A DNA stretch of 59,550 bases, taken from sequence record MK165087.1; one strand, written 5' to 3'. Both the position numbers and the translations under genes were made by a program. The stretch is from Escherichia phage BRET. The notes beneath the pieces are model-generated. The model had not been told where the DNA came from and did no database searches. It worked only from the letters and a program-made list of their open reading frames with translations. The number at the start of each line of letters is the position of its first letter. The stretch's first letter is position 1. Positions 28,230 to 55,417 of this stretch are shown one piece after another.

Positions 28230-28298
28230 TGTTCACCTAACAAATAAGCGCCCGTAGGCGCTTATTATATTAAAGATAATGTATGATTCGCAAATCAG

Positions 28299-45406: not shown

Positions 45407-45432
45407 ATGGGCGCATATAGCGCCCATTTTTT
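45407..45432. terminator. bidirectional rho-independent terminator
   Basis: ATGGGCGC-atata-GCGCCCAT followed by TTTTTT; lies between convergent genes. Confidence 0.6.
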
Positions 45433-47980
45433 ATAACTTAATGACTTCGTTCATTCTCTCAATGTCTACCAAATAACACTTCATTCTCGGTGGTGTAAAC
45501 TCTGCACCGAAGAAACTTGTAAAGTCCATTGGCCTCATCTCGGTAAGAACTTCCATAGACATCAGACCATAGATTGTATTGTCTATGACTTGCAAGATGT
45601 TGTCATTTCTTGTCTGTTTAAAAGCCTTAAACTGGCGGCATACTGTGCATAAATCACTCCTTGTGACAATAAATGCGTCCTTAAACATGGGAAACCGTTT
45701 ATACACGCCAGCTTTAACTTCCCCATCCAAGAACTTCTTAATGGAATTCAGCATTATCTTCTCACGGCTTGTACTGTCGGTAGAACCGATCTGCCCACTG
45801 TTACGCTTCTCTAAGAAACGCTCGTTACCCTGATCAATAAATGACTCAGCCCAACGATAATGTTCCATAGTAACAACAGGTCGTTCACTGTTATCAGCCA
45901 CAGCAAGAAGAGAAGCGATACGCAATACCTTCAACGCCTTCCTTGTGTACATCTGACGAATTACTTCGTCTTGTACCTGCTCACCATCATTGCCGCTGTT
46001 CAGGAACTTCGCAACAACATTATCAAGATTATCAAATGCTTCGTGTACCTCTGCTTCCATTTCAACATAGCATGGGGCAGTCCCTGACATAATGCGCACA
46101 GCTTGTTTATAGATAGCTCCAATAGTGCGCAGAATTGCTTCTGGATATTCCAGGAGCATACTCTTATTCATCAACGGTCGGTTAGCAGTACATTCCCATG
46201 CAATAATACGTGACATGAAACCACTAGACATCATGCGGTCATCCACGTTCCCGTAAAATTCATCTGGTGTTGTTTCACCTGCAAAGCTATACGCCTTAAC
46301 TTTACCGCCAGCAGTTGTATTGTCTTTGCTAGAGTGTTTTGAACCACCTGAGAAAGCGTAGAAATGCCCCTTATCATAAAGGGAAAGCATTTCATCCATA
46401 ATGTCTTTAGCTTTACCAACTTCCATCTTACCATTACGGAAAAACGCACCGACTTCAGTCTTATAGTTAATGGATGAGCCACAGGACATAACTGACGTAT
46501 CCATTATGACGTCCTTGCGCAATGCAGCATCAGACGCATATGTACTTGTATCCAGGACACGTTCAATACCAAATATCTGCTGCCCGTCCTGGCCGCCATA
46601 ATTGGATACTTGAGAAAGAATAGTTTCAATGTTAGAGCGAAACGCTTCTTTACCAATACCAGAACGTGCAATCAGTACAAAGTAGTTATTCAAACCACTT
46701 CGTGTGACTGTGTTCCACGCCTTACCGCACATACCACTAAATAAAGCAAGAGCAGACAGAATACTAATGTCTTTAATAGGCAACAAGCTCGCTTTATACA
46801 TATTACGAGCAACCTCACCCATAAATCCTGGAGGCCAAGCTAAACCGTCTGCCTGTTCTTCAGTGTAATTACCATCTGTGGTCAACACCTCTTCAGGTGG
46901 GCGTTCTGGTGTAGTTGCCTGACGCAGTTTCTCCGTGCGCTCTATAGCTGCATTAACGTTATTCTGAACTATCTGCATAAGTCCCATAGATTTAACATGG
47001 GCATCGTAGCGATAGTTGCGAATCATTCTATCCAGGTGGTACGGACGCTTAATTTTTTCACCAGGCATACGACGTGAATCATCGTAACGACTACTCATTG
47101 GTGAATACATGAATAGGCGTCTTACCTGGAAATTGTACTTGCTCTTAAAGCAAAGAAAGTCAATTAATGCAAATTCTGCTTCAGACTGAGAAGGGAAACA
47201 GCGTTCACCGATAGAAGTATCAACTTCTTCAGCTCTCCAACGACCTTCCCATAGCTGTTTAAACAACGTTCCGTTTTCTTGTTCGCACAACTGGATATAA
47301 ACATCCTGATCTTCCATTGCATATGGATCATTACTGAAATCTTCTTCAGTAAGTTCCAACATTTGGAAGCCATCGGATTCATTAATTTCACTCATCTCTG
47401 ACATAAGCTGATGAATGAGATTAGCAATATATCCTTCGCTTTCACTACCTGGAGCACCAGACACAGTGCGTGGAGTAACATCCCAGTGATCACCTGTACA
47501 GATAATGAAGCGATACTGTGAATATACTTCTACACCATCACGGCGCTTACCAGCTTGAGGGATGGAATAAATCCATGTATGCAACCCATCACCGCTTCTG
47601 GAAATTTCCGTATAACTGTGGAACGATTCAACAATCTTCTTATATCGCTCGCCAGCAACTTTCTTTTCCATTTCAGACATGGTGTCTTTAATATCCATGT
47701 CTATACAACAGAACGGATCACTTGGAAGTAGATAGAAACCTAGACGCAGATTATGACCGATTTCGTTATAGTAACGAATACAACGTTCCGCATCTTCAAA
47801 GGACATTAGTAAATGCAAGTTAGACGGTTTTTTATCGTTGCCGTCTTTACGAAGTGGGACCATATCCCCTAAATCATCGTCCCATACATAAGGTTGTTTT
47901 TCTGATGATGTACCTGGATGAAAACCGCAGACAGCCCACTGTTCGTATTGTTTAATTTCTTGAGGAAAAAGTTCCAGCAT
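45431..47980 (-). CDS. primase-helicase (primase-polymerase-like N-terminus plus P-loop helicase C-terminus)
   Basis: 849 aa; N-terminal acidic motifs (CIDMDIK, SGDGLH) and C-terminal P-loop (ARSGIGKE). Confidence 0.65.
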   Translation of the reverse strand: MLELFPQEIKQYEQWAVCGFHPGTSSEKQPYVWDDDLGDMVPLRKDGNDKKPSNLHLLMSFEDAERCIRYYNEIGHNLRLGFYLLPSDPFCCIDMDIKDTMSEMEKKVAGERYKKIVESFHSYTEISRSGDGLHTWIYSIPQAGKRRDGVEVYSQYRFIICTGDHWDVTPRTVSGAPGSESEGYIANLIHQLMSEMSEINESDGFQMLELTEEDFSNDPYAMEDQDVYIQLCEQENGTLFKQLWEGRWRAEEVDTSIGERCFPSQSEAEFALIDFLCFKSKYNFQVRRLFMYSPMSSRYDDSRRMPGEKIKRPYHLDRMIRNYRYDAHVKSMGLMQIVQNNVNAAIERTEKLRQATTPERPPEEVLTTDGNYTEEQADGLAWPPGFMGEVARNMYKASLLPIKDISILSALALFSGMCGKAWNTVTRSGLNNYFVLIARSGIGKEAFRSNIETILSQVSNYGGQDGQQIFGIERVLDTSTYASDAALRKDVIMDTSVMSCGSSINYKTEVGAFFRNGKMEVGKAKDIMDEMLSLYDKGHFYAFSGGSKHSSKDNTTAGGKVKAYSFAGETTPDEFYGNVDDRMMSSGFMSRIIAWECTANRPLMNKSMLLEYPEAILRTIGAIYKQAVRIMSGTAPCYVEMEAEVHEAFDNLDNVVAKFLNSGNDGEQVQDEVIRQMYTRKALKVLRIASLLAVADNSERPVVTMEHYRWAESFIDQGNERFLEKRNSGQIGSTDSTSREKIMLNSIKKFLDGEVKAGVYKRFPMFKDAFIVTRSDLCTVCRQFKAFKQTRNDNILQVIDNTIYGLMSMEVLTEMRPMDFTSFFGAEFTPPRMKCYLVDIERMNEVIKL

Positions 47981-51164: not shown

Positions 51165-51227
51165 AACCTCACCCTTGACTAAATAAAATCGATTGATTTT
51201 GAAATTCAGTTGCCAAGTTTTAATTTA

Positions 51228-51374
51228 TGCAAAGTTTTTGCTATTTGCAATTGTGATGTTTTGCGGTGTTTGTATGTGCAAAGTTTTTGCGTTTGCAAAA
51301 AATTACAACAGTCTGAAGGTGAGAAATTGCAAATTTATAAAGATCGGTGAAAAAATGCACAATTTATAAAGATT
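51228..51374. repeat. dyad-symmetric repeated elements in AT-rich non-coding region
   Basis: Two copies of TGCAAAGTTTTTGC(t/g)(a/t)TTTGCAA about 49 bp apart, plus two copies of (T)GCA(A/C)AATTTATAAAGAT about 30 bp apart. Confidence 0.4.
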
Positions 51375-51854
51375 CAGCAACATACGAAACCGCGAAGCGA
51401 AGTGTATGAAAAATAAGGGAAAATTTCGAGGATTGGGGGGTTTGTATGGATTTATATTATTTATAAAGGGGTCTCGTGGGGGTCGTCAGTAGACAACTCA
51501 AAAATAAAAAATCTTTATAAAATTTATATAAATACACACATACACACACTTTTACCTTATTTTTCATGCACTTACCCCCTTTCATTTCGTACATTAGGCG
51601 ACAATATACGAGCAATATAAGAAATATTTGTTGCGCAACGACTGTGTGTTTTCTAACCAATCGAAAGATTGCTTTATATACGTCCGCGCGTCTAACACAA
51701 AAGAAAAGTAGATTGCAAGCGATTTTTGCTGAGGTAACTCTCGAAGTGAAAGCGATTCGCGAGTTTGAAATTTTGTAGCCCGAAAACGATTCTATTTTAT
51801 GGTATAAATGCCGGATTTTTCGGGCAAAGCCGGCTTTTCGGTGAGGTTGGGTGG

Positions 51855-52030
51855 CTGGGATCGGGGTAGCGAGTCGCCCATAAGGCGAAAATAGCCGCGA
51901 AAACGGGGCACACAGCGCGATTAAACGGTTGGATCGGTGTAAGGGTGGCGGTGAGGGGCGAAAATGCCGCAAAATCGCGTACAGGGAAGCAGGGAGTGGA
52001 TCGCTGTAAGGGCGTGTAAGGCGACTGAAT
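51855..52030. repeat. GC-rich degenerate tandem repeat with GATC cores
   Basis: Three units starting GGATCG(G/C)(G/T)GTA(A/G) spaced about 70 bp apart; two are followed 26 nt later by GGCGAAAAT(a)GCCGC. Confidence 0.4.
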
Positions 52031-52142
52031 TGGAGTCAATGGTAATGTACGGAAGAGGGATTCAGGTTCTTAGAGCGCGAATGGTGGAGTTATGGGTGAG
52101 GAATATGTGGTCAGCAGGGTAACGCGGGAGGTGGTGCGGGTA

Positions 52143-52181
52143 CAAAAACGAAAACGCCCCGTTGGACTTCAACAGGGCGCG
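52143..52181 (-). terminator. rho-independent terminator (minus strand)
   Basis: On the minus strand GCGCCCTGTTG-aagtc-CAACGGGGCG followed by TTTTCGTTTTT, just downstream of the gene ending at 52204. Confidence 0.5.
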
Positions 52182-52203
52182 GATTATATAATGCAGTTAG
52201 AAG

Positions 52204-53799: not shown

Positions 53800-54294
53800 T
53801 TAATTGCCCCCTTTATTGTTGAGCCCGTGGAATTTGCGCCATGCGTAGAATTCAATCGTTGCGTTATTAATATTCCAACTATTAGCTTTCGCAAGGTCAC
53901 GGACGTTACCAATAGTTGGCACACCATTAGGCAACATATTATCCAGAGCGTTCCAAACGTCTGCACATTTACCTTTAATTGGGCGACGGACCCCGTTGCG
54001 CGTTTCGCTGCGCGTTTTACCTTTGACGGGAGCGACCGGAGCTGGTTGTGTGGTCACTTCCACGACAGTTGCTTTATCAGCTTCTACCAGATCGTTAGCT
54101 GCCTTATTAACCGCGCTTTCGCTGTACCAGTAGCGGCCACCGTCTTCGTGCGGTTCCTGGTGAATAAAGCTATTAGCTGTCGCAGTGTCCACATCCAGAA
54201 CCTTTTTTAAGGCACGGCGAGCGTTAGACATAGTGGCGAAGAAGCGAGCGTCTTTTGCTACGCGAGTGATAGTTGCCATTGTGATTATCTCCAT
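53800..54294 (-). CDS. hypothetical protein
   Basis: About 160-aa ORF; start may be 54279. Confidence 0.4.
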   Translation of the reverse strand: MEIITMATITRVAKDARFFATMSNARRALKKVLDVDTATANSFIHQEPHEDGGRYWYSESAVNKAANDLVEADKATVVEVTTQPAPVAPVKGKTRSETRNGVRRPIKGKCADVWNALDNMLPNGVPTIGNVRDLAKANSWNINNATIEFYAWRKFHGLNNKGGN

Positions 54295-54661: not shown

Positions 54662-54846
54662 AATGCAATCTCCCTTCGGGTGAAGCGGGCGCGGAACCCG
54701 TGTCCCGCTTTAAAACCCCCTTTACCCCACGCGTTTATAATATGACAGCAGGGTATCAGATGCAACTATTATCTGCATTATTTTAGAACTTTTTTAGTTG
54801 TGTTTCATAATAATAACATCCGGGACTATACGGTAGATGGTGTGCC

Positions 54847-54915
54847 GGAAATACCAGGTGGCGCGAGTGTGCTGAAAATACCAGGTAACAGCACGCGCAG
54901 GAAATACCAGGTAGC
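54847..54915. repeat. iteron-like direct repeats (3 x AAATACCAGGT at 26-bp period)
   Basis: Copies at about 54850, 54876 and 54902 in the intergenic region between divergent operons. Confidence 0.5.
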
Positions 54916-55215
54916 ACATACATAGACAGCACATAGTGGGCAGGTGGATAGTAACAGATGTAATTATACTGGACGGTATAGTATAGTCATGTAATAGATA
55001 ACATACTAATCAAATAAAAAATAATAACGCGTGCAACAATAAACAACGTTACAATAGAGCGCGCGACAGTCACATGACGTAACAATCACCTCACTGACGA
55101 TCACGGGACGTTATAGTAACGCCGCGGGGCGGCTCTTAGATCTCTGCCAAGGATTCATCTTTTGTAGATTATCTCGTCACTAGACACTTTATATCCCCAC
55201 CTCACCTGCCCTATA

Positions 55216-55244
55216 TTGTTCGTATAAAGTTAATTCCGTATATA
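55216..55244 (+). promoter_or_regulatory. candidate sigma70-type early promoter
   Basis: TTGTTC-N17-TATATA upstream of the rightward operon starting at 55418. Confidence 0.25.
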
Positions 55245-55417
55245 AATACTCGAGATCAGGTTTACAAGATTCGGTTTCCTGTATGTGTAACTGATTTGCC
55301 GCACAAGATTTAAAGCACACGAGACAGCTAACTGTGGTTATTAATTGTTGCGGCCGGCTATGTTAATCAACTTGCGTATCCTGTTATAGTTATTCCGTTA
55401 ACGTTAAAGGGGTTTAT

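Follow-up and report, generated by a model that had tools for sequence, protein, structure and literature searches.

A putative operator-like array of three palindromic repeats, separate from the packaging site, in the early/late control region of Escherichia phage BRET

Background

What is the function of the short repeats that lie between two divergently oriented groups of genes in Escherichia phage BRET (sequence record MK165087.1)? Their pattern had been taken, in a sequence-only reading, as typical of origin iterons or of multi-site operator control. Here the repeats are considered within the whole stretch of 59,550 nucleotides that was analysed (referred to as the window) and in comparison with related phages.

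BRET is a Nonagvirus, that is, a phage 9g-like coliphage. The segment 54300-55800 of the window matches 17 phage records at 91-96% identity, all of which belong to Nonagvirus (Queuovirinae); the matched phages include 9g, JenK1, JenP1, JenP2, SE1, HdK1, HdSG1, ESCO3, PD328, SP8, ChristophMerian, and FritzHoffmann.

Results and discussion

Layout of the early/late control region

The small terminase gene (phrog_5334) occupies positions 1-552 at the start of the window, and the large terminase and portal genes come next. The leftward genes (minus strand) run from 54661 down to about 24 kb, with replication and 7-deazaguanine genes among them. The rightward genes (plus strand) run from 55418; their products are small proteins, an HslV-like peptidase, spanins, and a lysin, after which the series continues round to the terminase. 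Both operon starts given in the sequence-only reading, 54661 and 55418, are confirmed. Its description of early operons on both sides has to be amended, since in the passages of the 9g paper on gene layout (PMC4276943) the leftward genes constitute the early region and the rightward genes, with lysis and morphogenesis functions, the late region. The same passages describe two BPROM-predicted promoters of opposite orientations in the early/late intergenic region of 9g. In BRET the interval combines the early/late control region with the Nonagvirus packaging site, and these are two separate elements.

The first late gene in most relatives (9g, JenK1, JenP2, SE1, SP8, and others) is a 95-aa ORF (9g_00039). 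It is absent from BRET, ESCO3, PD328, and JenP1, in which about 70 nt of other sequence is found instead. BRET 55256-55330 corresponds to positions 2468-2755 of L001, the site of the 95-aa ORF, and the upstream element TCCGTATATAAATACTCGAGA is retained.

The three-repeat array and its conservation

Three copies of GAAATACCAGGT start at 54848, 54875, and 54901; in the general form (G/A)AAATACCAGGT the repeats occupy 54848-54859, 54875-54886, and 54901-54912. Three direct repeats at exact 26-bp spacing had been described; the number is correct, but the start-to-start spacing is 27 and then 26 bp. In a repeat search, the copies appear as 20-nt units that are 80-100% alike. The 10-mer AATACCAGGT has three exact occurrences in the 59,550 bases, all in the array, and the 7-mer ACCWGGT is found genome-wide only at the three array copies. 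The repetition is far beyond chance.

Each copy contains a 9-bp core. In copy 1 (54848..54859, GAAATACCAGGT) the core is TACCAGGTG in BRET and TACCAGGTA in the 14 other relatives. Copy 2 (54875..54887, AAAATACCAGGTA) has the perfect 9-bp palindromic core TACCAGGTA at 54879-54887, and copy 3 (54901..54913, GAAATACCAGGTA) has a perfect palindromic core at 54905-54913, with polymorphic positions 54901 and 54903 on its 5' side. The chance for a 9-mer to be a palindrome is about 1 in 256, and the palindromy of TACCAGGTA is as expected for the site of a symmetric dimer.

To derive conservation counts, 15 distinct Nonagvirus sequences were aligned. In the 9-mer cores, 1 of 27 columns is variable (3.7%), as against 10 of 29 columns (34%) in the spacers between the cores and 68 of 165 third codon positions (41%) in the neighbouring 164-aa gene. 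These differences are statistically significant (Fisher p = 0.006 for cores versus spacers and p = 5e-5 for cores versus third positions). Therefore, the array cores are under purifying selection. The 3' flanks adjoining the cores of copies 2 and 3 are also invariant, so that the functional unit may be larger than the core or different from it.

Three copies at 27/26 spacing are present in 15/15 sequences, and the distance from the array to the pac site is constant in every Nonagvirus sequence but JenP1. A few variants are found: one 27-bp unit is exactly absent from a metagenomic contig (L068), which has 2 copies, copy 1 carries a C-to-G change in one IMG/VR contig, and copy 3 is degenerate in L082. 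Repeat number and phase, which the sequence-only reading had singled out for comparison among related phages, are thus conserved in the 15 sequences, but JenP1 has 0 copies and the sister lineages differ (see below). The spacing of 26-27 bp amounts to about 2.5 helical turns, which places successive sites on opposite faces of the helix.

Some other readings of the repeats were considered and rejected. Small ORFs of 41-49 aa overlap the array and are annotated in some relatives; coding was rejected because the frame changes from copy to copy with the 27/26 spacing, no ribosome-binding site is present, and the substitutions lack a synonymous pattern. A relation to Dcm or EcoRII was suggested by the CCAGG in each core, but CCWGG is not avoided genome-wide (103 versus about 75 expected). 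To our knowledge, none of the DnaA, IHF, NanR, CsrA, and Chi motifs fits the array. A scan of IMG/VR for two cores 12-22 bp apart gave 41 stretches, most of them outside Nonagvirus contigs and many from giant viruses; the two that were inspected are unrelated to the array. The passages of the 9g papers that deal with the cut repeats and the promoters (PMC5567051, PMC4276943) do not mention the three ATACCAGGTA repeats, and in the portions of the literature covered no report on these phages was found that contains the array motif.

A natural knockout in JenP1 and different repeats in sister lineages

The array is carried by an accessory cassette (54746..54936) that is replaced in JenP1 by approximately 700 nt of unrelated DNA. 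The replacement (L011 1947-2660) contains a 102-aa ORF and a hairpin, GTTGGATGC/GCATCCAAC, with T-runs on both strands, which looks like a bidirectional intrinsic terminator. The 3' arm of this hairpin provides the -35 hexamer TTGCAT of the early promoter.

ATACCAGGT is not found anywhere in the 60.7 kb of JenP1. The JenP1 small terminase differs at 3 of 183 residues (98.4% identity, compared with 97.3-100% for the array-bearing phages), and its pac block is identical. The primase-helicase ORF (45431-47980) and the other large replication ORFs lie outside the BRET segments that have no blastn match in JenP1. Considering that JenP1 lacks the array and keeps the terminase, the pac site, and the replication genes, the array is not essential as a terminase site and is not the sole origin. 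Judged from these comparisons, it is a Nonagvirus-specific, accessory, and dispensable element, and the toleration of natural losses fits a modulatory site.

Further lineages were found via homologues of the 164-aa early protein. In Klebsiella-type phages (L064, L065, L066, L078), three tandem repeats of about 10 bp, GCCTTACAGC or CMTACAGGGG, occupy the array-homologous spot, and in L078 one copy of the Nonagvirus unit (GTGTGCCGAACATACCAGGTG) lies at another place in the control region. L075, L079, and L080 exhibit three copies of TAGTCACA at 91-bp spacing together with GTMAC-N4-GTKAC palindromes, and three such palindromes are located at the array-homologous spot in L077. L076 and L081 have almost no DNA from the TAGATGCAA block to the pac-like block. 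With different repeats or none according to lineage, the zone from the early-promoter block to pac is a hypervariable cassette. Seuratvirus CAjan and Pantoea phage Vid5 were also tried as comparators and were found too divergent, the intergenic region of CAjan being 172 bp.

The array probably arose by triplication of a 27-bp unit. It is improbable, in our estimate, that it is nothing but such a triplication, kept without a function of its own by constraint on the region or by the youth of the group. Tandem duplication is suggested by the 80-100% likeness of the 20-nt units together with the single GTGTGCCGAACATACCAGGTG in L078, but a neutral duplication is not expected to yield a palindromic core. 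Neighbouring non-repeat stretches are fairly conserved as well (12-14% variable columns), and JenP1 does without the array; however, the cores match the pac block in conservation (3.7% versus 3.8%), while the variation in the spacers is about as high as that of synonymous sites (34% versus 41%).

The pac site in the right third of the interval

Positions 55066-55156 are the experimentally mapped pac site of the 9g type, and this site is already known. According to the passages on the packaging site in Tsai et al. 2017 (PMC5567051), run-off sequencing and restriction mapping placed the major terminase cut of 9g at nt 28243. The same passages state that the cut is preceded by two 21-bp repeats sharing the core SRYCRCGGGRCG, that a BglII site is 2 bp away, and that packaging is leftward and headful with a terminal redundancy of about 3 kb. 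A pile-up of read starts at the same base is noted in the relevant passage of the earlier 9g paper (Kulikov et al. 2014, PMC4276943).

The 9g nt 28243 is position 2336 of L001 and position 55135 of BRET. It is the first base packaged (minus strand), with packaging proceeding leftward. The doublet bases at the cut (A/C, A/T) match the published 9g landmarks in BRET, and the BglII site (55138-55143) lies 2 bp from the cut, in agreement with the publication. The 12-bp cores of the pattern SRYCRCGGGRCG are located on the plus strand at 55099-55110 (GATCACGGGACG) and 55120-55131 (CGCCGCGGGGCG), 21 bp apart, and the pattern has exactly two matches in the BRET genome versus 0.07 expected. The 9g pac site and 55066-55156 are therefore the same element, with the SRYCRCGGGRCG cores, the BglII site, and the cut mapping base for base. 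Moreover, the linear GenBank records of HdSG1 (L071) and HdK1 (L072), each about 64 kb long with about 3.4 kb of terminal redundancy, end at ...GCCGCGGGGCGGCTC, which is the 55135 base, and this is an independent confirmation of the physical end.

The pac block (55066..55156) is highly conserved: over 55066-55143, 3 of 78 columns are variable (3.8%) among 15 phages. The 35-bp pac core (55069-55103), GTCACATGACGTAACAATCACCTCACTGACGATCA or GTCACAYGRCGTRACWATCACCTCACYGAYGATCA, is common to the Klebsiella-type relatives, in which the small terminase is only about 61% identical.

The second group of repeats, which had been described as three ACGTTA(C/T)A copies at about 30 bp and included in the iteron pattern, belongs to this packaging signal region and is not a separate iteron array. 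Three copies of ACGTWAYA are present, at 55046, 55077, and 55108, the middle one reading ACGTAACA, and their spacing is 31/31; the invariant pac block includes copies 2 and 3, and copy 1 is polymorphic. ACGTWAYA has 14 matches genome-wide versus 9.3 expected, so that it is not rare and only its local clustering deserves attention. The short tandem TATAGTATAGT, also pointed out earlier, is present at 54977-54987 but is not conserved, since it reads TACAGTATAGT in about half of the relatives. An AT-rich stretch (54990..55045, 68-80% A+T) lies between the array and the pac block.

The array is 223-287 bp from the cut, on the first-packaged side. Repeat arrays beside cut sites are typical of terminase recognition regions, and in L075 and L079 the first motif of the pac block, TAGTCACA, is repeated three times at 91-bp intervals across the zone. 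These features would agree with accessory packaging sites that raise the efficiency of pac cleavage when occupied by the small terminase or by a host factor that bends DNA. We regard such a role as unlikely, because JenP1 combines a small terminase of 98.4% identity and an identical pac block with the absence of the array, and the Klebsiella-type relatives have the 35-bp pac core and no array. Lambda cosB (R1-R3), SPP1 (pacL/pacR), and P1 (the pac hexamers) likewise have short repeats close to the cut on the side that is packaged; unlike these, the array does not track the small terminase (as JenP1 indicates) and lies well outside the pac block. Recognition is, moreover, already explained by the invariant block and the pac repeats as published in the passages cited above.

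Two GATC sites flank the cut (55099-55102 and 55139-55142), the left one within CGATCA, which reads TGATCA in the Klebsiella-type relatives. The pac site of P1 contains Dam-methylated hexamers, TGATCA/G. The GATC pair around the BRET cut recalls these hexamers, a likeness offered as an idea only.

Predicted promoters around the array

A proximal leftward early promoter of the sigma-70-like type, TTGCAT-17-TATTAT, is predicted from the sequence at 54737..54765 (minus strand), and the TAGATGCAA block at this promoter is conserved across Queuovirinae. The breakpoint of the JenP1 replacement falls inside the spacer of TTGCAT-17-TATTAT, and the -35 hexamer and the spacing have been re-created there from unrelated DNA. 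The re-creation of TTGCAT at the same spacing supports the proximal early promoter as real.

The block (T/C)AGATGCAA is located at 54753-54775, and its complement, TTGCATCT, includes the early -35 hexamer. It is kept in Nonagvirus and Klebsiella-type lineages and even in Seuratvirus CAjan (L064, L073, and L075-L081 besides BRET). In L076 and L081, the lineages with the short region, it occurs twice, 38 bp apart.

A rightward promoter, TTTAGA-18-CATAAT, is predicted at 54782..54813 (plus strand), matching a promoter that BPROM predicts in the 9g record. Lineages with a 164-aa early protein of 64-67% identity to that of BRET retain the -10/AACATC block. A distal leftward promoter-like site, ATGACT-16-TATAAT (10 of 12 matches), is found at 54963..54990 (minus strand), overlapping TATAGTATAGT; it would transcribe through the array. 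On the other side of the pac site, TCCGTATATAAATACTCGAGA at 55235..55255 (plus strand) is a candidate late promoter or leader; it directly precedes the first late gene and is conserved in every Nonagvirus and Klebsiella-type relative. No hexamer of the intergenic region is more enriched than TATAGT/ACTATA (5 versus 0.37 expected), and the TATAGT-rich middle of the interval has the appearance of promoter-like DNA. The array lies 30-95 bp from the predicted promoters on both sides and does not overlap any predicted hexamer.

An extended -10-like stretch, TGTTATAGT, is found at 55382-55390, 28 nt upstream of the start of the 121-aa gene. It lies within sequence that is unchanged in 13/13 aligned phages and may be a second late promoter.

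With predicted promoters on both strands that would transcribe across the array, and with palindromic cores able to pair together, the repeats could act in RNA as alternative leader hairpins of an attenuator or a small RNA. This is very improbable. No Rfam match and no tRNA were found, compensatory changes are absent on either strand, and the folding energy is no better than that of shuffled sequences (z = -1.16 and +0.53).

The replication origin is better sought elsewhere

As origin iterons, the three repeats would be bound by a phage initiator that melts adjacent AT-rich DNA. Three direct repeats are indeed flanked by AT-rich DNA on both sides (54760-54815 and 54975-55035), at the divergence of two large transcription units. 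However, JenP1 conserves the replication ORFs and lacks the motif genome-wide, and L076 and L081 are without the array zone altogether. Iterons, such as those of the lambda ori and of theta plasmids, lack symmetry, usually follow one another in phase at about 11 or 22 bp, are essential, and come with an initiator gene. The array resembles them in having at least three direct repeats beside AT-rich DNA, but its cores are palindromic and about 2.5 turns apart, JenP1 dispenses with it, and no Rep/O-type initiator is recognisable, the primase-helicase having an AEP primase domain and DUF3987. Moreover, on a fine scale, the minimum of the cumulative GC skew is at about 51.1-51.25 kb and not at 54.85 kb. 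In view of JenP1, the sister lineages, the helical phase, and a GC-skew switch 3.5 kb away, an origin at the array is disfavoured, and we hold it to be decidedly unlikely.

A better candidate origin, judged by its sequence features, is a region of about 1 kb within the early region (51165-52200) that contains no credible ORF and has a GC content of 33-35%. The cumulative GC skew has a sharp minimum at its left edge, and the region has a G-rich flank with a GC skew of up to +0.45. It contains an inverted repeat with 54-nt arms (51400-51453/51520-51573) and the direct repeats AATTTATAAAGAT, GTGCAAAGTTTTTGC, and TGGATCGSTGTAAGGG, each present twice. Neither an Rfam family nor a tRNA was found in 51165-52200, and JenP1 and the Klebsiella-type phages display the same gap in annotation.

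A putative operator function

Multi-site operator control, the other half of the original suggestion, is the best reading for the ATACCAGGT repeats and is kept on account of their palindromic cores, the purifying selection, and the position between the predicted early and late promoters; no binder to complete it was found. Our tentative explanation is that a protein binds the three ATACCAGGTA palindromes and thereby modulates transcription in the early/late control region, both the binding and the transcriptional role being what we infer for a palindromic, selected, and dispensable element. A dimeric DNA-binding protein, encoded by the phage or by the host, would bind the 9-bp palindromic sites. 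The array sits between the proximal early and rightward promoters on one side and the distal leftward promoter on the other, as predicted, and the bound protein could tune or block transcription that crosses the region. In this respect the array would be less like a core promoter element than like a tripartite operator or a roadblock. The packaging part of the interval is established by experiment for 9g: the invariant pac block is recognised by the small terminase, cleavage falls at 55135, and headful packaging runs leftward. The placement of sites 26-27 bp apart on opposite faces is unusual for cooperative operators.

Ten neighbouring proteins were compared with Pfam, PHROGs, and NCBIfam, and two of them also with PDB sequences; only function-less or insignificant matches were obtained. 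No protein co-varies with the presence of the array, JenP1 being the only array-less close relative. A protein of the array-bearing phages that is missing in JenP1 was sought, and the small genes that vary in the vicinity of the array are alleles or indels unrelated to its presence. The 117-aa protein of the late operon has an HTH-like sequence at its end. In a Klebsiella phage, the protein at the corresponding position has a weak match (E = 2e-4) to a PHROG named 'late transcriptional activator', but it aligns with the 117-aa protein only marginally. A search for homologues of the 117-aa protein returned only close relatives, and no link between this protein and the array was established.

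Homologues of the second early protein, of 164 aa (53800-54294, minus strand), are found throughout Queuovirinae and in phages of Pseudomonas, Vibrio, and Alteromonas; one homologue is annotated as 'transcriptional activator'. The conserved C-terminal domain of the 164-aa protein (residues 96-155) is modelled confidently as a beta-hairpin and three helices, and the AlphaFold model has only a weak, non-significant likeness to winged-helix and HTH domains.

A related possibility, quite doubtful in our judgement, is that the array with its bound protein is a transcriptional insulator or roadblock. It would keep transcription from the flanking promoters from reaching pac, the place of terminase assembly, on the right and the proximal early promoter on the left. 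In JenP1 the insulation would come from another device, the apparent bidirectional intrinsic terminator at exactly the position of the array. If this is true, the zone from the early promoter to pac would be an 'insulator cassette' across Queuovirinae, with other repeats in each lineage.

Comparison with known systems

As a putative operator, the array may be compared with two regulatory systems. The operators of lambda are 17 bp long, overlap promoter hexamers, and have their repressor encoded alongside. The array resembles lambda OR/OL in having three partly palindromic sites, about 23-27 bp from centre to centre, with oppositely oriented promoters. It differs in its 9-bp palindrome, in sites that overlap no predicted hexamer, in having no known repressor, and in belonging to a virulent phage. 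In the p4/p6 switch of phi29, which is also a virulent phage, several binding sites lie between divergent early and late promoters. The BRET region shares with it multiple sites (putative here) between early and late promoters, but has no sequence or protein similarity to it.

The array is thus a new instance of an ordinary kind of element, next to a pac site that is already known. The array, the promoter zone, and the pac site, which the first reading had merged, are now separated; the BRET region is tied to experimental packaging data, and the search for the origin is shifted to 51.2-52.2 kb. As a cis element the array is clean and conserved, and a natural knockout of it exists; it lies in the early/late switch region of a virulent phage with 7-deazaguanine-modified DNA and reported carrier-state associations, and a binder of the ATACCAGGTA array would give a handle on the timing of early and late expression. 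The relevance is local to specialists of the group and does not extend to a long-standing general question.

Nonagvirus-like DNA in bacterial assemblies

Isolate assemblies under the names Shigella sonnei, Shigella boydii, and E. coli contain Nonagvirus-like contigs of 55-59 kb (P0016, P0025, P0062, P0071). Phage 9g reportedly forms stable carrier-state ('pseudolysogenic') associations, and the contigs in the Shigella and E. coli assemblies fit these reports. A contig of 1036 nt in a Dyella japonica assembly (L082, NZ_JPLA01000062.1) consists of Nonagvirus control-region and pac DNA, and is probably a phage contamination of that assembly.
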